Source: Myxococcota bacterium (GTDB lineage Bacteria; Myxococcota_A; UBA796; CAJQPC01). From it: a stretch of DNA of 26,711 bases. The translations under genes were made by a program, and so were the position numbers. Shown piece after piece: positions 13,683 through 26,392 of the stretch. The notes below the pieces were generated by a model. The model was not told the origin of the DNA. It saw only the letters and a list, made by a program, of their open reading frames with translations, and did no database searches. The first letter of the stretch is position 1. Every line of letters begins with the position of its first letter. The DNA is taken from positions 1-26,711 of the forward strand of contig DASCPX010000061.1 in NCBI GenBank assembly GCA_036012755.1, in the 5' to 3' direction.

Positions 13683-14384
<702 letters not shown>

Positions 14385-14414
14385 GAGCCCAATCCTCGCA
14401 CGAACTGGGGGCGG

Positions 14415-16412
14415 CTATCTCGAGAGGGGAAGGTGGACGACGAAGCGAGCGCCGCCGTCGATGCCGTCTGTGCACTTGACCCGGCCATCATGTCGCGAGA
14501 CGGCGTCCGAGACGAAGGCCAGCCCGAGTCCGTGACCACCGGCCTTGCCGCGCCCCGGTCCTTCGACCCGGGCGAAGGGCTGGAAGATGGCCCGGCGCTT
14601 GTTGGGCGGGACTCCGATTCCATTGTCCACGACCTCCAAGACGGCGGTCGTGCCCTCCTGGCGGAGCATCACCTCCACCAGCGGTCGAGGGTGATCGTGG
14701 CGGCGGTACTTGAAGGCGTTGTCGAGCAGGCACACGACGCAGTCGCGCAACAGCGGCACGTCGCCGACTGCGAGGTCGACCGGATCGAGGCGGCGGTGCA
14801 GCGACACGCCGCCATCGGCGAAGCGGGGCTCCCACTCCCGGAGGACGTCCTCGACCAGGGCGCCGAGGTCGTAGGGAACCGGGCGGGCAGGCGCTCGGCT
14901 TCGTGCGACCGCCAGGACCTCCTCGATGCGCGCCGTGAGCTTGTCCGACTCGGCGATGATGCGGCCGGCGAAGGCCTCGACCATGGCTGGGTCGCTCGCG
15001 GCGCCGAGCTCCAGGTTCTCGGCCATCACGCGGATCCCAGCCAGCGGTGTCTTCAGCTCATGCGTGACGCGGGTCGCGAACTCCCGCTGGCGGTCGAGCA
15101 GCTCCTGCTCACGCCGATCCGCCGTCACGCGAGCGGCGAGGGCGGCGACGCCGATGATGCCGCCCACGAGGATCGGGAGGAGCTGGCTGAGGAACTGCGC
15201 CCGGTATTCCGCCTGGACGGCCAGCAGGTACTCGGGCACGAAGCCGAGACGCAGGTGGCTCAACAGCCGCGGGAAGCTCACGCTCGCGGCTGCGCTGCCG
15301 TTGCCGAAGAGGAGCTCGCCGCCGCTGTCGGTGACGACCAGACTCGCGGGGTCATCTGCGCCGAGCATGAGGTCTTCCAACAGGACCGTCTCGTTCAGCT
15401 GCACCGCCCCGAAGGTCGCCGGGGAGATCTCGCTGTAGACCAACAGGAAGTGGCTCCCGTACTGGTCGTGCACAACCCGTCGATCTGCTCCGCGCTCGGC
15501 GCGGACGGACAGCTCGCTCTTCACCTCCTTCCAGGCAGCCTGGCGCCTCTCTGCGGCCGGCAGTCGCTGCTCGATGTCCTGGGCCGGACTCGGCGCGTCG
15601 AGCAGCTCGAGCTGGTCGAGGATGGGGAAGCGCACGAAGTCCAGCGTCTGCTCGAGCACGGGGCCATCCTGGCCGACGATCTCCCGCCCCAGCTCGCTGA
15701 GCAGGGCGATGGCGTACTTGTCCCGGTCCGCCATCTGGAGGGCCTCTGCATGAAGCAGGCGGCGGATCGCCACGCGCCGGGGGGCGAGACCCAAGGCGGC
15801 GGCCCGCCGCAGATCGAGATCCTCCGGTACGCCCGTCCCCTCGAGCGCGGCTACGGCCTCGTCCGCGCGGCCCTGGGCGAGGAAGCGGCTGGCGGCCTCT
15901 GTCGCGGCGAAGAGCGCAAGGCCGGTGTCGCCCTCTGTGACGCACTTGACGAAGAGCCCGGGAGCGGAGCGGGGATCGACAGCGTCCTCTGCCAGGCGCG
16001 CAGCGCGAATGCAGCGGTTCGCGTTGAGCTCGGGCAGCGCCTCTGTCGGTGCGGGCGGCGGGAACACGAGCCTCGCCCCGAGCTCGCCGGTGACCATCTC
16101 CCACTTGTAGAAGCTGTCGAACCAGTCGACGGTCTCGCGGTAGTAGCGCTGACGAGTGAGGAGCTCCTCGCGCTCGCCGATGTCCTGGAGCCAGTCCTCG
16201 GTGCGCTGGGCGACACGGTCGTCCCACGCCCTGGCCTGCCGCTCCAGGTCTCGCGTGGCGCGGTCGATCTCCCGGGTCTCGAGGTCCTTCTGCAGCCGCC
16301 AGGCCTGCCACCCCCCCATCGCGACGAGCAGGAGCAGCGCAACGCCCAGCGCCCAGTACGAGATTCGGCGGATCGAGTTGGCGGTGACGCGTTGGATGGG
16401 GAATGCGACCAC
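14415..16412 (-). CDS. Membrane sensor histidine kinase with large extracytoplasmic domain
   Basis: Two hydrophobic TM segments; H-box VTHELKTPL; N-box LLDNAFKY; G1 DNGIGVP; F-box IFQPF; G2 GHGLGLA. Exact start uncertain. Confidence 0.93.
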   Translation of the reverse strand: MVAFPIQRVTANSIRRISYWALGVALLLLVAMGGWQAWRLQKDLETREIDRATRDLERQARAWDDRVAQRTEDWLQDIGEREELLTRQRYYRETVDWFDSFYKWEMVTGELGARLVFPPPAPTEALPELNANRCIRAARLAEDAVDPRSAPGLFVKCVTEGDTGLALFAATEAASRFLAQGRADEAVAALEGTGVPEDLDLRRAAALGLAPRRVAIRRLLHAEALQMADRDKYAIALLSELGREIVGQDGPVLEQTLDFVRFPILDQLELLDAPSPAQDIEQRLPAAERRQAAWKEVKSELSVRAERGADRRVVHDQYGSHFLLVYSEISPATFGAVQLNETVLLEDLMLGADDPASLVVTDSGGELLFGNGSAAASVSFPRLLSHLRLGFVPEYLLAVQAEYRAQFLSQLLPILVGGIIGVAALAARVTADRREQELLDRQREFATRVTHELKTPLAGIRVMAENLELGAASDPAMVEAFAGRIIAESDKLTARIEEVLAVARSRAPARPVPYDLGALVEDVLREWEPRFADGGVSLHRRLDPVDLAVGDVPLLRDCVVCLLDNAFKYRRHDHPRPLVEVMLRQEGTTAVLEVVDNGIGVPPNKRRAIFQPFARVEGPGRGKAGGHGLGLAFVSDAVSRHDGRVKCTDGIDGGARFVVHLPLSR

Positions 16413-16447
16413 GACGCGGGTGGTTCCGGCAAGTTAAGGAGCCGCCG

Positions 16448-17530
16448 ATGAAGCGACGTGAGCTGTTGCAGTTGTCGGCCCTCACGGCCGCATCCGTGGT
16501 CTTTCCCGCGGCGGCCAGGGGCCAGGACCTCGAGGGCGAGCGCCTCGCTCGCGTGGAGCGGATCCTCGCCGGGCTCTCGTTGGACGAGAAGATCGGCCAG
16601 ATGATGATGAGCTACCCACCGCTGGAGAAGACCGGGCCGGTCCCAGTGGGCTCGGTCATCTTCGTGGGCAACCTGCTGAAGTCCGAGTCCGCGGTCGTGG
16701 AGCGCGTGGAGTCCCTCCAGAGCCGTTCGAGCATCCCGCTGTTGATCGCGGCTGACGTCGAGGGTGGCAAGCTCAACAAGCTCTCCTTCCTCCCCGGGTT
16801 GGAGGCCGTGCCGAGCAACCGGGAGCTCGCGGACGAAGGAGAGGAGGCGGCGCGCGAGTGGGGTCGCCGGGTCGGCGCGGGCATGCGTCGCCTGGGAATC
16901 AACATGGCGCTGGCGCCGGTGCTCGACGTGGCTGGCTCCGGCATGATGTTCGAGAGCGGTCGCAGCTTCGGCGCGGATCCGGCGACGGCCGCGCAGCTCG
17001 GCCAGGCGTACAGTGCGGGGCTCGCAGAGAGCGGCGTGGTGGCCGTGGGCAAGCACTGGCCCGGATACGGCTCGCTGAGCGAGAACACCGATCACAACTT
17101 CGTCGTGACCAGCCGCAGCAGCGGCGAGGTGGAGCGACAGGCCCAGGCCTTCGTTGGCTGTGGGGACGCCATCGTCGGCGTGATGCTGGCGAACGTCGGC
17201 TTCGACTCCTATGGCAGCGTGCCAGCCATCCTGAGCGCCGACCTGGTGAAGGCGGCCCATCGCCAGGCCTGGCTCGCGATCACGGATGACCTCGCCATCG
17301 ATGCGCTCGCAGAGGCCACCGGCGGCGACAAGGAGGAGGTCGTGCGTCGCGCCTTCCTGGCGGGGAACGACATCCTGCTGACCACCGCTCCGATCGACTG
17401 GGATCGTGCGCTGGACTACCGCGGCATCATCAGGGCGCTCGTCGACGAGAGGCCCGATCTCGTGTCCCGCGTCGACGACAGCGTGCACCGAATCCTGCGA
17501 GTGAAGGCCCGCGCCGGCTTGCTAGACTGA
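16448..17530 (+). CDS. Tat-exported glycoside hydrolase family 3 protein (NagZ-like single domain)
   Basis: AAGGAG RBS; MKRRELLQL twin-Arg signal ending ARG-Q; LDEKIGQM, ADVEGG, LAPVLDV, RSFGADP, KHWPGYG, ITDDL, AFLAGNDILL, SVHRILRVK. Confidence 0.9.
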   Translation: MKRRELLQLSALTAASVVFPAAARGQDLEGERLARVERILAGLSLDEKIGQMMMSYPPLEKTGPVPVGSVIFVGNLLKSESAVVERVESLQSRSSIPLLIAADVEGGKLNKLSFLPGLEAVPSNRELADEGEEAAREWGRRVGAGMRRLGINMALAPVLDVAGSGMMFESGRSFGADPATAAQLGQAYSAGLAESGVVAVGKHWPGYGSLSENTDHNFVVTSRSSGEVERQAQAFVGCGDAIVGVMLANVGFDSYGSVPAILSADLVKAAHRQAWLAITDDLAIDALAEATGGDKEEVVRRAFLAGNDILLTTAPIDWDRALDYRGIIRALVDERPDLVSRVDDSVHRILRVKARAGLLD

Positions 17531-18496
17531 GGCCCCCTCGGTCCCGAAGGGGTTGTAGGACTCGGCCCGGACGACCTTGTTCCGCCCCTCGTCCTTCGCT
17601 GTATAGAGCGCCTTGTCGGCCCGGGAGATCCACGGAACCTGGAGCTCGTCCTCGCAGCGCTGCGCAACGCCGAAGCTCGTGGTGACCTTCAGACCCGTCG
17701 CGGTTCGGCCCCAGTCGTGGCCGGCGATCGCCCGCCGAATGCGCTCAGCGACTTCGAGGGCGCCGTCCTCGTCAGAGCCCGGGAGGAAGACCGCGATCTC
17801 CTCGCCGCCGTAGCGGACGACCGGATCGGTGTCCCGCACGCCGAGCATCACGAGCCGCGCGATGCCGGTGAGGACCTCGTCGCCGACGGAGTGTCCATAG
17901 GTGTCGTTGATGCTCTTGAAGCGGTCCACGTCGGCGAAGATGATGCTGATCGGGACCTTGGCCTCGACGCAGCGCTCGCAGAGATCCGGCAGCTCATCCT
18001 TGAGGTAGGCGCGGGTGTGGAGCCCCGTGAGCGTGTCCCGGCCGACCTGCTGGAGGCACTCGAGCACACGCCCGAGGTGGGCGAGCTCGTCGAGTCCGAG
18101 GAGGTCGAGGCGCAGCGAGACGCCTCCGATCTCCAGGTGGTCCCCGGGACGCAACAGCGCGCGGCTGACGCTCTGGTCGTTCACGCGGGTGCCGTTGGTG
18201 GAGCCGAGATCCTGCACGGTGACCTCGCCGCGGTCATCGCAGCTCACCAGGGCGTGGGCCCGAGACACCGAGGCGTCCGCCAGCTGCAGCCCGGCGCTCT
18301 CGTCGCGTCCGACCACGACCTCCTCGCCCCCCGACAGCGAGGAGAAGCGCAGCATGTCCTGGCCCGCGACGACTCGAATCGTCGGGATGGCGACGCGGCG
18401 CAGGCGGCGCTGGCGGGGCAAGGACAGCTTCATCGTGACCTCTGAGAGGTCGTCGAATCCCGCGTCGGGACGCGAGCTATTGCCGCGCTCGGCCAT
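17522..18496 (-). CDS. FHA-domain diguanylate cyclase
   Basis: FHA: VGRD...VSRAHA...DLGSTNGT. GGDEF: DTLTGL, DVDRFKSINDTYGHSVGD, RDTD I-site, RYGGEEI, ADKALYTAK..GRN. Start ATG 18496 (alternatives 18526, 18433). 3' end overlaps the GH3 gene by 9 bp. Confidence 0.93.
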   Translation of the reverse strand: MAERGNSSRPDAGFDDLSEVTMKLSLPRQRRLRRVAIPTIRVVAGQDMLRFSSLSGGEEVVVGRDESAGLQLADASVSRAHALVSCDDRGEVTVQDLGSTNGTRVNDQSVSRALLRPGDHLEIGGVSLRLDLLGLDELAHLGRVLECLQQVGRDTLTGLHTRAYLKDELPDLCERCVEAKVPISIIFADVDRFKSINDTYGHSVGDEVLTGIARLVMLGVRDTDPVVRYGGEEIAVFLPGSDEDGALEVAERIRRAIAGHDWGRTATGLKVTTSFGVAQRCEDELQVPWISRADKALYTAKDEGRNKVVRAESYNPFGTEGASV

Positions 18497-18571
18497 GACT
18501 TCCAAGGCTACCGCGAATGGGCGCAAAGCTCCACGCCATGCGCCATCGTCCGGCTCCCGAGCCTGGCGAGC

Positions 18572-21500
18572 CTACTGTCGCTGTCTGATGTGGAACTCGA
18601 CTCGTCGGTTCGCCGCGCGGGCCTCTTCGCTGGTCCCTGGTTGGAGCGGCTGGGACTCGCCGTAGCCCTGAGCCATCAGGCGCGACTCCTCGACGCCGGA
18701 CTGGACGAGGTAGGAACGGACCGACTTCGCGCGGCGCATGGACAGGTCGAGGTTGTACTCCTCGTCGCCCTGGTCGTCGGTGTGGCCCTGGATCTCGACC
18801 AGGGCGAGCTCGGGGTGGTTGAGCATGGTCTCGACCACCTCGTCGAGGAGGGAGAAGGAATCCTTGGCGATGATGTCGGCGTCGAGCTCGAAGAAGACCT
18901 TGTCCAGGATCAGGACGCGGTCACCCTCGACCACGACGCGGCCGCTCTGGAGCACGACGTCGACCCGCGCGGTCGAGCCGCCCTCGACGATCACGGCGTT
19001 CTCGATGCTCCGGTAGCCGTTGGCGGACACCACGAGGCTGTAGTCGCCGGGCTCGAGCTCCAGCTCGGTGATGCCATCGTCCCCGCCGACCTCCACGATC
19101 GCGGCTCCGAGGACGCGCACGCGGCATGCCACCGGCAGCCCCTGCTCGTCCTTGGCGGTGACGACCACCTGCCCCGGTCCCGCGTCCACCGGCACCGGCG
19201 TCACGATCACCTCGACAGGCACCTCCGGTGCGATCTGTGGTGACCAGGCCACTCCAGCGAAGACGCGGTAGTCGGGCGCCCCGATGCCCTGGCTCAGTCC
19301 ACCTCCGGCGCCGGCGTGGACCACCACGGCCAACAAGGGGTGGAGGTGGATGGCGCCGAGGGCCTCGACCGGGTGGGCTCCGGCCCCCTCCTGGCCCCAG
19401 ATGAGCTCGCCGTCGAGCTCGGCGGAGACGGACAGCAGGTTGTTCGCGCGCAAGGCGGCGCCGAGGCCGTAGTCGATGCGCGGCCCCCACTTCAGGGTCG
19501 GTCCGAGCTGCTGCCTGGTGCCAGAGCTGCCTCCGAGAGCGGCGGCTACCAGGACCGGGCCCGTCGCGAAGGAGCCGGACAAGGCGCCGCCGGCGGTGGG
19601 GTCGGCTTCACCGAGCCAGGAGCCCTCGTTGCCGGTGGGGAGGTCGAGGTGGCCGTGGAGCGCCACCCCGAGGCCGTCACCGCGCCGCTGGACGAGCTCT
19701 CCGCTCGCCGCGACCCGCGCGTCCCCGACGAGGTTGAAGCCCCCGACCTCGTAGCCCGTGGCCGCCATGTGCAGCGGCAGGTCCACGCCGACCCGCGCCC
19801 TCGGCAGGTTGACCCAGGCCTGGGCGTTGGCCGTCGCGAGGTGCTCCACCAGCTTCAGCTCCTCGCGGCCGTCGGTGTAGCGGTAGACGAAGGGGTCGTT
19901 GGCGTAGCTCAGGACGAACCCGCCTCCAGCCGTGAAGCTCGGCCCCACGACGGTGTCGGGCACCACCAGCAGATCACTGGCGCCCAGGGCGGGCCGTAGA
20001 CGCTGGGCGTCGAGGCTCTGGGGAGCGTCCTGCGCGGCGGCGGCGCCAGGGACCAGGAGCACCGCGGCGAGGGACCAGCGCCGACGGGTCAACAGCGCGC
20101 CCAGTAGAGCGAGGGCGAGGGCAGGCACTGCCCCCCCGGTGCTGCACGAGCCTCCGGTGAATTCGCCGCCGGAGAACAGCGGGTCACCGGTGACGCCCGT
20201 GTCGTCGGTGCCCGAGTCCTGGGAGCAGAGGCCCTCGTCGTCGGTGGGGTCGAGGATGTTCGGCACGCCGTCGCAGTCCGAGTCCTCGTCACAGGGCCCC
20301 TCCTGGCCGTCGGGGATGCCATCGCCGTCTGTGTCCGGGTCGAGCGGGTCAGAGCCGCAGTCGCCCTCGACGTCGTTGTCGAGGCCGTCGCCGTCGGCGT
20401 CCGGGTCGGGGTCCTTGTAGTCGGGGATGCCGTCGCCGTCGGTGTCGCCGGTGCCCTCGTCGACGTCTGGAATGCCGTCACCGTCGCTGTCCTCGTCACA
20501 GAAGTCGGGCCAGCCGTCGTCGTCGGTGTCGTCCAGCCACTCGGTGCTGTCGTCGATACCGTCGCTGTCGCTGTCGAGGTCGTCGACCTCGCCGCCGTCG
20601 AGATCGCACTTGTCTTCGAGCGCGTCCCAGATGCCGTCGCCGTCGGTGTCGACGTCGTCGTCGGCCAGGGTCGGGTCGATCTCCCACTCCCCGACGGCCC
20701 CGTCGATGTCGCGGTCCTCGTCGCCGTCCGGGACGCCGCCGGTGTCGGAGTCGACGAGGTTGGCGTTGGTCTTGGACTCCGGATCCAGGTCCGGGCGGAA
20801 GCACCCGACGCTCTCGTCGGTGTCGGCGTGGGCCTCTTCGATTCCACGCTCGAGGCCGTCCGGGAGGCCATCTTCGTCCGTGTCGCAGGCCTGGGCGTTG
20901 GTGCTGATGTCGAGCTCGCGGTCGTCCGTGAGCCCGTCGTCATCCGAGTCCGCGTCCCCGGGGTCCGTGCCCGCAGCCAGCTCCTGGCTGTCGGTCAAGC
21001 CGTCGCCGTCGCTGTCGATGGCGAAGGGGTCGCACCAGCCGTCGGGCATCGTGCCGAGGCCCGCGCTGTCGTCGTGACCGGCGAGGTCGGCGTCGAGGTT
21101 CTGGAGCCCGTAGGCCCCCTCCGTCGCGAGGGCCACACCGAAGGCGATCTCGTCGCTCAGCAGGGTCTCTGCCTGGAAGTCCGCCTTGTCGATGGCGAGG
21201 TCGACGAACCAGTCCGCGTCACCCCCGCTGCTGCTGTCGGACTCGGTGAACCGAGCCAGCTCGTCGTCTTCTGGAGAGGAGCTGATCACATCCACCGTCG
21301 TGAGCGTCGCGTCGACGCCAACGGCGCCATCCTCGTTCGCGGCCAGCGCGAGATAGGGCGCGGGCCCGCTCACGCCGAGGGCGTACTCGAAGGTGCTCGT
21401 GTCGCCGTCGAGCTCGAAGAGGACGGCCCAGCCGCCAGGGACCAGCGTCGTCTCGGAGCTGTCGGACCAGGGGTCCTCGTCGATGCGCACGCGGAACCAG

Positions 21501-21685
21501 AGCGTCTCGCCGTCCGTTGCCCAGAAACCGGCCGGATCCGCGGCGGTCCCGACGAGGTCGACAGCGTCGTCGTCGTGCTGGTGGTCGTCCCTCTCGTCGA
21601 CGAGATCGACTCCGTCCATCGTGAGGGGGACCCAGTCTCCTTCGGCGGGCCAGGCGTGTACGTTCAGCGACAGCAGGATCAGCAT
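18572..21685 (-). CDS. Large OmpA-family surface protein: N-terminal beta-rich domain, TSP3-like Ca-binding repeats, internal MYXO-CTERM-like tag, beta-barrel, PEGA/carboxypeptidase-regulatory-like domain, OmpA C-terminal domain
   Basis: Many DxDxDG repeats; GGSCSTGG-hydrophobic-RRR; barrel ending PDYRVFAGVAW; C-terminal VFFELD...IQGHTDD.G...YNLDLSMRRAKSV...GYGESQP...NRRVEF. GGAG RBS before ATG 21685. Confidence 0.9.
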   Translation of the reverse strand: MLILLSLNVHAWPAEGDWVPLTMDGVDLVDERDDHQHDDDAVDLVGTAADPAGFWATDGETLWFRVRIDEDPWSDSSETTLVPGGWAVLFELDGDTSTFEYALGVSGPAPYLALAANEDGAVGVDATLTTVDVISSSPEDDELARFTESDSSSGGDADWFVDLAIDKADFQAETLLSDEIAFGVALATEGAYGLQNLDADLAGHDDSAGLGTMPDGWCDPFAIDSDGDGLTDSQELAAGTDPGDADSDDDGLTDDRELDISTNAQACDTDEDGLPDGLERGIEEAHADTDESVGCFRPDLDPESKTNANLVDSDTGGVPDGDEDRDIDGAVGEWEIDPTLADDDVDTDGDGIWDALEDKCDLDGGEVDDLDSDSDGIDDSTEWLDDTDDDGWPDFCDEDSDGDGIPDVDEGTGDTDGDGIPDYKDPDPDADGDGLDNDVEGDCGSDPLDPDTDGDGIPDGQEGPCDEDSDCDGVPNILDPTDDEGLCSQDSGTDDTGVTGDPLFSGGEFTGGSCSTGGAVPALALALLGALLTRRRWSLAAVLLVPGAAAAQDAPQSLDAQRLRPALGASDLLVVPDTVVGPSFTAGGGFVLSYANDPFVYRYTDGREELKLVEHLATANAQAWVNLPRARVGVDLPLHMAATGYEVGGFNLVGDARVAASGELVQRRGDGLGVALHGHLDLPTGNEGSWLGEADPTAGGALSGSFATGPVLVAAALGGSSGTRQQLGPTLKWGPRIDYGLGAALRANNLLSVSAELDGELIWGQEGAGAHPVEALGAIHLHPLLAVVVHAGAGGGLSQGIGAPDYRVFAGVAWSPQIAPEVPVEVIVTPVPVDAGPGQVVVTAKDEQGLPVACRVRVLGAAIVEVGGDDGITELELEPGDYSLVVSANGYRSIENAVIVEGGSTARVDVVLQSGRVVVEGDRVLILDKVFFELDADIIAKDSFSLLDEVVETMLNHPELALVEIQGHTDDQGDEEYNLDLSMRRAKSVRSYLVQSGVEESRLMAQGYGESQPLQPGTSEEARAANRRVEFHIRQRQ

Positions 21686-23748: not shown

Positions 23749-25308
23749 TCAGCGCTTGGCTGCGCGCTTCAGCTTGGTCTTGGCGGCGAAGCCGAGGTCG
23801 ACGGCGAGCTGGAATCCTCCGGGGATCTCGCTGTCGAGCCGGGCCATCAGCGCGATGACCTGACCGTCGTGGAGCTCGAGGCGGAGGCTGACGCGTTGGC
23901 CCTCCGTCGGCGGCGCTTCGTGGGTCTGGAGCGCCAGCCTCTTCTTCTTGAGTCCGCCTTCCCAGGAGTCGGCGAAGGCGTCCCGGTCCGCCCACTTGAT
24001 GACGTAGGTATCGCCGACCTTGTGGACCTTGGGCCCGCCAGTGGTGACCGCGGCTGGCTCCGGTTCCGGTTCCGGCTCCGGTTCCGACTCCGGTTCCGAC
24101 TCCGGTTCCGGCTCCTCTGCCGTGGGAGGCGGAGGGGCCGGGTCTTCCGGCAGGTCGGCGGGGGCCTCCCGGCGAGCGAGCACCTCCGCGTCGACGGGCG
24201 TCTCCATGTCGGAGATGTTCTCTTCGTCGGTCACCTCGTCTTCGACGTCCTCGTCTTCGACTTCCTGGTGTTCCTCGACGTCTCCGACTTCCTGGACCGT
24301 CTCGATGTCCTCGTCCTGGGGGTCGAAGTCCACCGTCGGCATGTCGTCGACCGCGGGAGACTGCACGACCTCGTCCGGAGCGCTGGACTGAGGCACGTCG
24401 CTGTCGTCCCGGAAGGGTGGGGGCCGGAGGTCGTCCGTGTCGTCGTCGTCGAACTCGTCTTCGTAGACGAACTGCTCCACCGGTGGGTCCGGGACCTCGC
24501 TCGTGCCCATGACCTCGATCAGCGAGTCGTCCTCGTCGTCGTCCTCGATGATGTCCTCGAGCACGCCTCCCTCTTCGAGGAGCGAGTCGAAGTCGTCCTC
24601 TGAGAGGAAGCCGTCTTCGCTGGCGTCTTCGTCCAGGCCGAGGTCCAGGCTGTCGAGGCTGTCTCCGAGGGTGTCGAGCCAGCTCTCGTCCTCTGACTCC
24701 TGGGGTGCGGCGGTCTGGTTGGCAGGACGCGCTGGCGGAGGGTTCTTGGCCTCGCGCTCCCGGCGTGCAGCGAGGGAGTTCCGGAGCGCGCTCAGGACCG
24801 CCTCGCGATCTCCCTGGTTGACGTCCGTGTCGGAGTCGCTGCCCTCGAAGCCGTAGGGGTCCTTGGACTTCGACTGCTGGCCGAGGGTCTCGTCGATGGC
24901 CTTGAGGGTGTGGGCGACCTGGACGTCGTTCGCGGAGGACATCCGCATGTCGAACTTGTCCTGGATCTCGTCTACGACGACCTCCGGGCGGGTGCTGGAG
25001 CCGCCGCCCGCGTGGGTCTCCATCCAGACGTGGTAGCGCGCCTTGTCCGTGTCGCTGACGTCGTCGACGGTGCAGTCGTAGCCTCGCTGTCCCGCGGCGT
25101 GCCCTCCGGTGCGCGTGACCTTGAGGACGCAGGTGAAGGGCACCGGTGTCCCCGGCAGCTCCATCTTCAGCGTCATCCGCTCCCCGATCTGCAGCTTTCG
25201 ATCGGTCTTGAGGGCGATTCGGTCCTCGCCGTCCAGACGAATGACGCGTCCGAAGGCGATGCCACTCTCGGTCTTCAGCGTGACCGGAAGATCCAGGTTG
25301 ACCTGCAT
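23749..25308 (-). CDS. Protein with two degenerate PilZ-like domains joined by a long acidic disordered linker
   Basis: N-term 'GRVIRLDGEDRIALKTDRKLQIGERMTLKMELPG' and C-term 'IKWADRDAFADSWEGGL...LQTHEAPPTEGQRVSLRLEL' resemble myxobacterial PilZ-type barrels; D/E-rich middle. Start trimmed to ATG 25308. Confidence 0.7.
   Translation of the reverse strand: MQVNLDLPVTLKTESGIAFGRVIRLDGEDRIALKTDRKLQIGERMTLKMELPGTPVPFTCVLKVTRTGGHAAGQRGYDCTVDDVSDTDKARYHVWMETHAGGGSSTRPEVVVDEIQDKFDMRMSSANDVQVAHTLKAIDETLGQQSKSKDPYGFEGSDSDTDVNQGDREAVLSALRNSLAARREREAKNPPPARPANQTAAPQESEDESWLDTLGDSLDSLDLGLDEDASEDGFLSEDDFDSLLEEGGVLEDIIEDDDEDDSLIEVMGTSEVPDPPVEQFVYEDEFDDDDTDDLRPPPFRDDSDVPQSSAPDEVVQSPAVDDMPTVDFDPQDEDIETVQEVGDVEEHQEVEDEDVEDEVTDEENISDMETPVDAEVLARREAPADLPEDPAPPPPTAEEPEPESEPESEPEPEPEPEPAAVTTGGPKVHKVGDTYVIKWADRDAFADSWEGGLKKKRLALQTHEAPPTEGQRVSLRLELHDGQVIALMARLDSEIPGGFQLAVDLGFAAKTKLKRAAKR
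24056..24115. repeat. Coding hexamer tandem repeat (TCCGGT/TCCGGC/TCCGAC) encoding EPEPESEPESEPEPEPEPEP
   Basis: About 10 degenerate 6-bp units read directly. Confidence 0.85.
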
Positions 25309-25399
25309 GAGCCAAACATTCTCGCACGACCGAGTTGGCGAGTCGATGGGGGGCGTCAGAGTCCGTGGTCGATCCGATGAGCCTGGTCCATGATGCGGC

Positions 25400-26392
25400 A
25401 TGTTCCTCGTCCTCGCTCTTGGCTGCAGCGAGCCCGCCGCCGTCCTCGACACGGCCACCCCGTCCGACACGGAGGACACGGGCGCGCCGGACAGCGCGTG
25501 CGCCGACGGCGACGCCGACGGCATCTGCGACTTCGACGACGACTGCCCGGACGTGCCGAACGACCTGGACAGCGATGGGGACGGGGTACCGGACTGCGAG
25601 GACGCGTGTCCGGGGAGCGACGACGGCCTCGACACCGACTCGGACGGCGTCGCCGACTGCCTCGATCCATGCCCAGCGGACCCCCTCGACGACTCGGATG
25701 GGGACGGCGTGTGCGACAGCGACGACGAGTGCCCAGGTATCGACGACGCCCTCGGCTGCGACAAGTGCAAGGGAAGCGACGGCTACGCGCTGGAGGACAC
25801 CGATGGGGACGGGCTTCCCGACGACTGCGTGCTCTCGGTCTTGCTGGCCACGAGCGAGGTCTACACCTCGTCCCGTGTCGAGGACATGCTCCTGGAGCGC
25901 GGCTGGGACGTGGACGCCCTCGCCGCAGAGGACATCGACGGGTCGATCGACTTCTCGCAGTACGACGTGGTGGCGATCACCTTCGACGCGGCGCTCAGCG
26001 ACATCTCGGCGGTGGTCGAGGCCAACGACGCAAAGGAGACGGGGCTGTTGATCCATCGAGGGAACAACGAACAGCTCGAGTCCACCGACATGGGCATCGG
26101 CAGCACCTACCAGGAAGGGGACTGCAGCCTGACGGCCGAGCACTTCATCACCGAGCCCCTCGGCCTCGGCCCGGTCGACCTCGGCTACACCTACAAGAGC
26201 TACCTGACCAACGTCGCGGACGGGGTCCTCGAGCTCGGCAGCTGCCAGAGCGGGGTTGCGCTCGCCGTGCACCCGACCCATCGGCGCGTGTTCACCCCCT
26301 GGTACGGCCACGACGACGGCATGCCCTGGTCGGCCGAGGGCGAGCTCATCGACCTCCGCAGCTACGCCTGGGCCGCGGGTTTCGGCTCCTGA
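25400..26392 (+). CDS. Lipoprotein with thrombospondin type-3-like repeats and an unknown C-terminal domain
   Basis: MFLVLALGC lipobox (in-frame TGA at 25391 fixes the start); repeats DGDADGICDFDDDCP, DSDGDGVPDCEDACP, DTDSDGVADCLDPCP, DSDGDGVCDSDDECP. Confidence 0.85.
   Translation: MFLVLALGCSEPAAVLDTATPSDTEDTGAPDSACADGDADGICDFDDDCPDVPNDLDSDGDGVPDCEDACPGSDDGLDTDSDGVADCLDPCPADPLDDSDGDGVCDSDDECPGIDDALGCDKCKGSDGYALEDTDGDGLPDDCVLSVLLATSEVYTSSRVEDMLLERGWDVDALAAEDIDGSIDFSQYDVVAITFDAALSDISAVVEANDAKETGLLIHRGNNEQLESTDMGIGSTYQEGDCSLTAEHFITEPLGLGPVDLGYTYKSYLTNVADGVLELGSCQSGVALAVHPTHRRVFTPWYGHDDGMPWSAEGELIDLRSYAWAAGFGS

Follow-up and report, generated by a model that had tools for sequence, protein, structure and literature searches.

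A single gene on the minus strand of a 26,711-nucleotide stretch of DNA from a Myxococcota bacterium (contig DASCPX010000061.1 of assembly GCA_036012755.1; this whole stretch is the window below) probably encodes the precursor of two separate envelope proteins. Its open reading frame (ORF), protein P0001, carries in its middle a MYXO-CTERM sorting tag followed at once by a predicted second signal peptide, and my reading of these sequence features, to which I would give a probability of about 0.72, is that signal peptidase I and myxosortase excise the resulting hairpin to leave a lipid-anchored surface protein and a barrel/OmpA protein at a 1:1 ratio. A sequence-only reading of the same DNA had already placed the tag inside an uninterrupted ORF without giving a strand, and both the frame and the place of the tag were confirmed, the ORF having no internal stop and a codon bias typical of a true gene, with the identical protein present on 8 contigs of the protein collection. 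The ORF is real and conserved, and its product is probably processed into two proteins. Processed polyproteins are uncommon in bacterial envelopes, and annotation pipelines label genes of this kind 'OmpA family protein', overlooking the tag and both products.

At the junction, Cys514 (nt 20146-20144) is followed by a hydrophobic helix, the Arg cluster RRR (aa 534-536), a second hydrophobic stretch and AAAA/QD (aa 548-553, the slash marking the predicted cut), while the motif GGEFTGGS begins at aa 506 (nt 20170). The invariant Cys, the hydrophobic helix and the Arg-rich cluster of MYXO-CTERM are all present, and the position is unlike the family, as 501 residues follow the tag here, although in the split orthologs described below it stands at the C-terminus. 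TIGR03901, the family to which the sequence-only reading had assigned the segment, scored above its cut-off of 20 bits on a 47-residue piece ending at RRR (21.3 bits) and below it on a 71-residue piece (19.0 bits) and the whole N-terminal half (14.8 bits); TIGR03382 (cut-off 15.85) gave 19.5, 17.3 and 7.2 bits for the same three. The second signal was judged by hydropathy, by its residues at -3 and -1 and by its register against free-standing relatives, and by rule it has a basic n-region, an uncharged h-region and small residues at both positions, all of which supports the earlier proposal that one Arg cluster both ends the tag and serves as the n-region of a new signal peptide. Furthermore, the TraB model NF033763 aligns to aa 544-1033 from its position 8, so that the internal AxA site falls where TraB begins. 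The two products expected at around 50 kDa each come out at a calculated mass of about 52.5 and 50.9 kDa for the predicted cleavage. The genome that holds the gene (G000; 6.7 Mb in 250 contigs) also contains a myxosortase (NF040914 at G000:C135, 117.2 bits, cut-off 100) and 88 terminal MYXO-CTERM tags as counted by an uncurated pattern, features that point to a Myxococcota origin.

Homologues conserve this junction, a point on which the sequence-only reading had laid weight. All 23 orthologs keep the hairpin, its Cys and two Arg being invariant, and the second stretch, variable in length and sequence (column identity 0.47 vs 0.59 for the barrel), remains uncharged and hydrophobic with small residues at its end; Cys514 itself is invariant in 77/77 aligned proteins. 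When the comparison was widened to 170 proteins, 98 proved to be fused, 4 partial and the other 68 free-standing or fragmentary; the second hydrophobic stretch is found in 94 of the 98 fused proteins at a median hydropathy of 2.58, compared with 2.64 for the leaders of 58 free-standing barrels, and the cut site falls in the same register before the barrel's conserved start in both groups, with A-x-A-Q in 71/98 and 31/58, respectively. The arrangement exceeds chance: a strict pattern, requiring a hydrophobic stretch and A-x-A-Q after the helix and basic cluster, fits 67/98 fused relatives, 2/336 comparable internal sites in G000 (one of them being this gene) and 0/84 read-throughs past terminal tags, a control that cuts only one way, the Q being in part characteristic of this barrel family. 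One fused protein, P0077, was missed by the pattern and stands outside the 98, P0114 has an internal barrel without a Cys tag, and locus L003 has a long open frame and no tag. Twelve loci picked for their long frames, from six other families (five of them in other classes), have the hairpin with other surface modules, and among Myxococcaceae-type relatives the tag is present in 120/120, the second hydrophobic stretch in 119/120 by script (in the remaining protein the wrong Cys had been chosen) and A-x-A-Q in 115/120. A phylum-wide search with the TraB model, partly driven by the OmpA domain and used only to choose loci, gave a match in 377 of 401 genomes and none above the cut-off, and when contigs of named genomes were scanned with TSP3 patterns, most matches were OmpA and TSP3 proteins unrelated to this one; eight of these loci were rescanned, and such barrels as they contained were free-standing.

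Further evidence comes from relatives in which the same two halves are arranged differently. Across the order, there were 69 matches in 81 genomes, and the 53 barrel loci examined divide into 50 fused in frame with the full hairpin, 2 split and 1 free-standing. The two split orthologs (L152 at G401:C39 and L153 at G402:C270) are the separate adjacent genes that the sequence-only reading had proposed to look for: the N-half stops at the same tag, 14 bases further on, behind a GGAG, an ATG opens the barrel gene with its own leader, and both loci are syntenic with the window, having the FHA-GGDEF and kinase genes downstream, while in G401 a myxosortase gene also lies a short way upstream, on the opposite strand. 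In a FastTree tree of 186 barrels, the G401 and G402 proteins sit among fused ones, and the comparison suggests fission in these two genomes; to fit the starred branches, the fused label must change at least 13 times, a figure that is inflated because some 'free-standing' rows are contig-edge fragments. Tandem barrel gene pairs also occur (L180, L181 and L182 in G408, G412 and G415), with both members fused in G408 and G412 and one fused and one free-standing in G415, and several of these genes have long C-terminal parts without an OmpA match.

G000 alone holds nine TraB-like barrels, of which two are fused and two lie directly after terminal-tag genes. The second fusion (L148, G000:C47:71828-76957) consists of a beta-helix and MopE-like repeats, the tag, the signal, a distant barrel and an OmpA domain. 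At G000:C228:1664-4105 (L147, L154), an internal MYXO-CTERM is followed by a lipoprotein-type signal and RCC1-like repeats, and 17 loci with the N-half of this C228 protein comprise 5 with an internal tag (4 with a lipobox-like Cys), 9 with a terminal tag and 3 in which none was found. Since this paralogous hinge ends in a lipoprotein-type signal, the second element appears to follow the rules of export signals and not those of barrel structure. Of ten internal pattern matches in G000, inspection by eye removed six that were ordinary membrane proteins and one tag that was near-terminal. Two further loci of the same genome resemble the N-half: a 1.8-kb contig (L149, G000:C158:1-1819), which may be contamination from a relative and carries a diverged copy together with a divergent NUDIX-like gene, matching the window, and L151 (G000:C59:94201-95175) with the same head, few repeats, a terminal MYXO-CTERM and no barrel, which reads as two adjacent frames and may be broken or mis-assembled.

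How well such fusions are documented had been left open by the sequence-only reading, and the layout is in print for one protein, MXAN_5598 of Myxococcus xanthus, which Guo, Haft and Wall class as an 'atypical' MYXO-CTERM protein, with the tag in an internal position as well as barrel and OmpA domains, and liken to fused TraA/TraB (mBio 2025, PMC11980579). They propose that its N-half is processed and surface-anchored and call the layout rare, whereas the counts above make the fused state the usual form of the gene in this order, occurring in other classes too. The published account also leaves a topological gap, in that a barrel after a MYXO-CTERM helix would sit in the cytoplasm; in the passages covered, the main text mentions no second signal and gives no account of barrel export. 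Similarly, the part of the Haft preprint consulted makes no mention of internal, fused or polyprotein MYXO-CTERM forms, and no description of a tag-plus-signal hairpin was found in the literature covered, outside of which most subscription journals lie; searches of that literature for bacterial polyproteins with internal signals, agmC and FbcH yielded nothing relevant. MXAN_5598 corresponds to P0294 by its 2699 aa and a peptide at 741-755 (strain DK1622; ABF92571.1; Q1D0T6; AgmC family NF047640, 356 bits, cut-off 275), and it has the same hairpin, with Cys2081, PAVA/QV after the Arg cluster and a predicted new N-terminus at Gln2136. A second signal peptide would close the topological gap in MXAN_5598 and provides exact cut sites (Cys2081 and Gln2136), which makes the idea testable in a model strain. 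The two proteins share a surface module, an internal MYXO-CTERM, a homologous barrel and an OmpA domain in one ORF; they differ in that MXAN_5598 has an AgmC head and Ig-like repeats, while P0001 has a different 200-residue head, no match to AgmC (NF047640) in its N-half and other neighbors (FHA-GGDEF, NUDIX). The MXAN_5598 gene is reported to adjoin ftsA/ftsZ (PMC11980579), and genome searches aimed at its locus matched only an N-terminal domain. A peptide of the MXAN_5598 N-half is listed for three vesicle samples and one membrane sample in the supplement of PMC4158809. To this the present analysis adds the syntenic split orthologs, the motif before the Cys, the collapsed variants and, for MXAN_5598, exact predictions of the cut sites.

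The proposed route begins with the first signal peptide, which would send the N-half through Sec until the MYXO-CTERM helix halts translocation with RRR still in the cytoplasm, the topology published for terminal tags, whereupon the second hydrophobic stretch, with RRR as its n-region, would restart export. Signal peptidase I would then cut after Ala551 to free the barrel for outer-membrane assembly, and myxosortase would cut after the probably lipidated Cys514, the N-half reaching the surface by type II secretion as in TraA, for which myxosortase cleavage and type II-dependent surface delivery have been shown (PMC11980579). A 37-residue hairpin would be left behind, having stood in for the stop codon, ribosome-binding site, start codon and leader of the split relatives and having fixed synthesis at 1:1. 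The products may re-associate in the outer membrane through the segment just before the Cys, tying an adhesin-like stalk to peptidoglycan. Pointing in this direction, a G-x-F-T-G-G motif precedes the Cys in 90/98 fused proteins as against 8/88 terminal tags of G000 (the pattern having been drawn from the fused set), aa 501-510 have a per-residue confidence (pLDDT) of 83 between disordered stretches of the AlphaFold2 model, and a complex prediction of aa 436-514 with the barrel gave an interface score (ipSAE) of 0.56 compared with 0.01 for the best of three controls, with the runs agreeing in at least 82% of contacts and a partner pLDDT of at least 46. The ipSAE mark is reached by 116/157 solved complexes and 2/215 mismatches, and values of 0.60 or under include 18 of the 157 solved complexes and both of the passing mismatches, so the prediction was rated weak and binding of the two halves is taken as plausible only. 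Most likely, the gene serves to present an adhesin-like or glycan-binding stalk on the cell surface while anchoring it to the cell wall, the adhesin function of the N-half being suggested by its domain types.

Several observations weigh against this account. The cleavage, lipidation and localization of internal tags are predicted throughout, and the MYXO-CTERM score is marginal, falling under the cut-off on the longer pieces. The searches favored fused forms, as one was restricted to proteins 570-1815 aa long and the others used queries that included the junction, and the relatives in the counts are not independent of one another. The vesicle table of PMC4158809 gives one peptide per protein, which cannot show two products. 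Lastly, four of the 98 fused proteins (P0090, P0096, P0109 and P0119) are without the second hydrophobic stretch and yet keep A-x-A-Q, running from Cys through one helix and an Arg pair straight to that motif; they have no OmpA match, as is true of 31/98 fused proteins, and do not form one clade. These collapsed relatives are not accounted for by two cuts and may be degenerate genes.

Among the other explanations, the sequence-only reading had itself raised a recognition module like that formed by TraA and TraB, the cell-surface pair of M. xanthus whose overlapping genes yield a 1:1 complex (PMC3325183, PMC12045341). The overall order, a MYXO-CTERM surface protein and then a homologous barrel/OmpA protein, is indeed that of TraA plus TraB, with the obvious difference that these are two genes, but the resemblance does not extend to the modules: TraA has a PA14-like head and Cys-rich repeats, and no Pfam or NCBIfam match to a PA14-like variable domain, to Cys-rich tandem repeats or to any TraA-type family was found in P0001, while TraB has TSP3 repeats between barrel and OmpA domain where P0001 has a small beta-sandwich (TSP3 repeats are present at this place in longer orthologs, by consensus). 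The C-half, with the barrel and C-terminal OmpA layout of TraB, scores 157.5 bits with NF033763, far under the cut-off of 700, and the nine G000 barrels have different partners, which makes this barrel look like a general partner of surface proteins. Nothing ties the gene to kin recognition; the fused protein is neither TraA nor TraB, and I consider a TraAB-type recognition role unlikely.

It is similarly unlikely, and slightly more so, that only one cut is made, with signal peptidase I freeing the barrel, myxosortase skipping the hairpin tag and the N-half staying in the inner membrane or moving on with its helix attached. Some TraA does reach the surface without myxosortase, an uncleaved route has been proposed, and myxosortase processing of an internal tag is itself only a proposal in the same paper (PMC11980579). 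Against a single cut stand the invariance of Cys514, the terminal position of the same tag in split orthologs, one of which has a myxosortase gene close by, and the listing of a peptide from the N-half of MXAN_5598 in outer-membrane vesicle samples.

An autotransporter-like arrangement, in which the chain remains uncut at the junction, the hydrophobic segment is a linker and the barrel carries the attached N-half to the surface, is improbable. The barrel does have 12 predicted strands, the number found in autotransporter barrels, and the four collapsed relatives, with one helix and no OmpA match, could fit such a route in those proteins. By topology rules, however, two hydrophobic helices around an Arg cluster would halt in the inner membrane; moreover, some relatives encode the two halves as distinct genes, lipoprotein-type partners other than barrels can follow the same hinge, and TraA and TraB localize independently (PMC12045341).

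Still more improbable is an internal translation start, whereby a TTG just before TRRRW would begin an in-frame barrel protein with an ordinary leader and no polyprotein would need to be cut. This TTG lies two codons before RRR, is a rare choice (5% of Leu codons) and would give a textbook leader; nevertheless, start-type codons lie within 6 codons before the Arg cluster in 19/40 fused loci, the same rate as for terminal tags (42/88), none of them has a Shine-Dalgarno-like motif, compared with 437/1124 first ATGs of G000, and among the 10 closest orthologs 8 lack a codon of this type, whereas the split orthologs have GGAG and ATG. That two genes were merged by a missed stop or frameshift in a fragmented assembly, a worry also voiced by the sequence-only reading and one to which the real split forms lend some color, is scarcely credible, because contigs of four other runs (X4, X5, X6 and X8, where X4-X6 share a study with a possible source run and X8 is a 170-base contig from another study) cross the junction with 0 differences and 0 gaps and the frame is fused in nearly all barrel loci examined from the order (50/53).

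Now considering that fusion and fission recur, TraB-like barrels can be viewed as general partners of MYXO-CTERM proteins, which bears on the role of TraB for TraA. Taken further, the hairpin could be a general polyprotein hinge of the Myxococcota, excised by two membrane proteases, swapping freely with a stop-restart gene boundary, compatible with a signal of either the signal peptidase I or the lipoprotein type and delivering a lipid-anchored surface protein together with its own TraB-like barrel docked on the pre-Cys segment. I regard the odds of this broader proposal as even; if it were true, TraAB would belong to a broad class of surface proteins paired with barrels, and a further export route would be marked by the four single-helix relatives.

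A bacterial precedent is FbcH of Bradyrhizobium japonicum, a cytochrome b/c1 precursor that is split at an internal signal peptide into two subunits belonging to one complex. Unlike the present gene, FbcH involves one cut, inner-membrane respiratory proteins and no sorting tag, whereas two different proteases and two outer-membrane routes are predicted here. Polyproteins of the flavivirus type also contain hairpins of two helices around a short basic loop, the first anchoring one product and the second exporting the next, and since these are viral proteins in eukaryotic membranes, the analogy is one of topology only. Tripartite tags can likewise be processed when not at the C-terminus, the examples being LPXTG (Navarre and Schneewind 1994) and an ArtA substrate of Haloferax volcanii (Abdul Halim 2017), both as cited in PMC11980579.

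The features of the protein are collected in Table 1. The AlphaFold2 model, built with 77 sequences, has a mean pLDDT of 89.6 and a predicted template modeling score (pTM) of 0.50, shows the strands of the barrel between aa 585 and 814 and is of low confidence at the junction except for aa 501-510. No Pfam match and no meaningful PDB sequence match was found for the head domain (aa 12-218), and a PDB sequence search with the barrel gave nothing meaningful; the sole lead for the head, to be taken as a lead only, is an Atlas match to Glucodextran_C (score 0.90, 159 shared features). Thrombospondin type 3-like repeats bind calcium as a family.

Table 1. Predicted features of the two-protein precursor (positions within the window).
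Feature	Position	Strand	Size or basis
Whole ORF, predicted two-protein precursor	18572..21685	-	1037 aa
First signal peptide, short and uncharged, aa 1-11, predicted cut before Trp12	21653..21685	-	Sequence; orthologs begin alike; cleavage predicted
N-terminal beta-rich domain, candidate binding head, aa 12-218	21032..21652	-	Confident in AlphaFold2 model
Asp-rich thrombospondin type 3-like repeats, predicted calcium-binding stalk, aa 219-487	20225..21031	-	Pfam TSP3_bac 34.2 bits, cut-off 25
G-x-F-T-G-G-x motif directly before Cys, candidate barrel-docking segment, aa 501-513	20147..20185	-	Conservation; pLDDT; weak complex prediction
Internal MYXO-CTERM: Cys514, hydrophobic helix, RRR, aa 514-536	20078..20146	-	TIGR03901 21.3 and TIGR03382 19.5 bits on 47-aa piece
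Second signal peptide, RRR shared as n-region, aa 534-551, predicted signal peptidase I site after Ala551	20033..20086	-	Hydropathy and register; cleavage predicted
TraB-like outer-membrane barrel, 12 predicted strands and ordered N-terminal segment, aa 552-817	19235..20032	-	NF033763 157.5 bits, under cut-off 700; model
Small beta-sandwich domain, CarboxypepD_reg/PEGA-like, aa 836-915	18941..19180	-	Domain scan and AlphaFold2 model
OmpA-type C-terminal domain, predicted peptidoglycan binding, aa 916-1037	18575..18940	-	Pfam PF00691 73.4 bits, cut-off 27.2

The runs containing this DNA are marine metagenomes. The neighbors of the fused gene include FHA-GGDEF and NUDIX genes: downstream on the same strand, window positions 13683-18526 encode an FHA-GGDEF protein, a histidine kinase and a response regulator, and the opposite strand carries a GH3 gene. 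At 23749-25770, also on the minus strand, lies a gene for a 673-residue protein whose long middle part is acidic and for which no Pfam match was obtained. Lastly, the first signal peptide of the fused protein (21653-21685) and one at 26360-26392 are both very short and uncharged, while the internal signal has a basic n-region.

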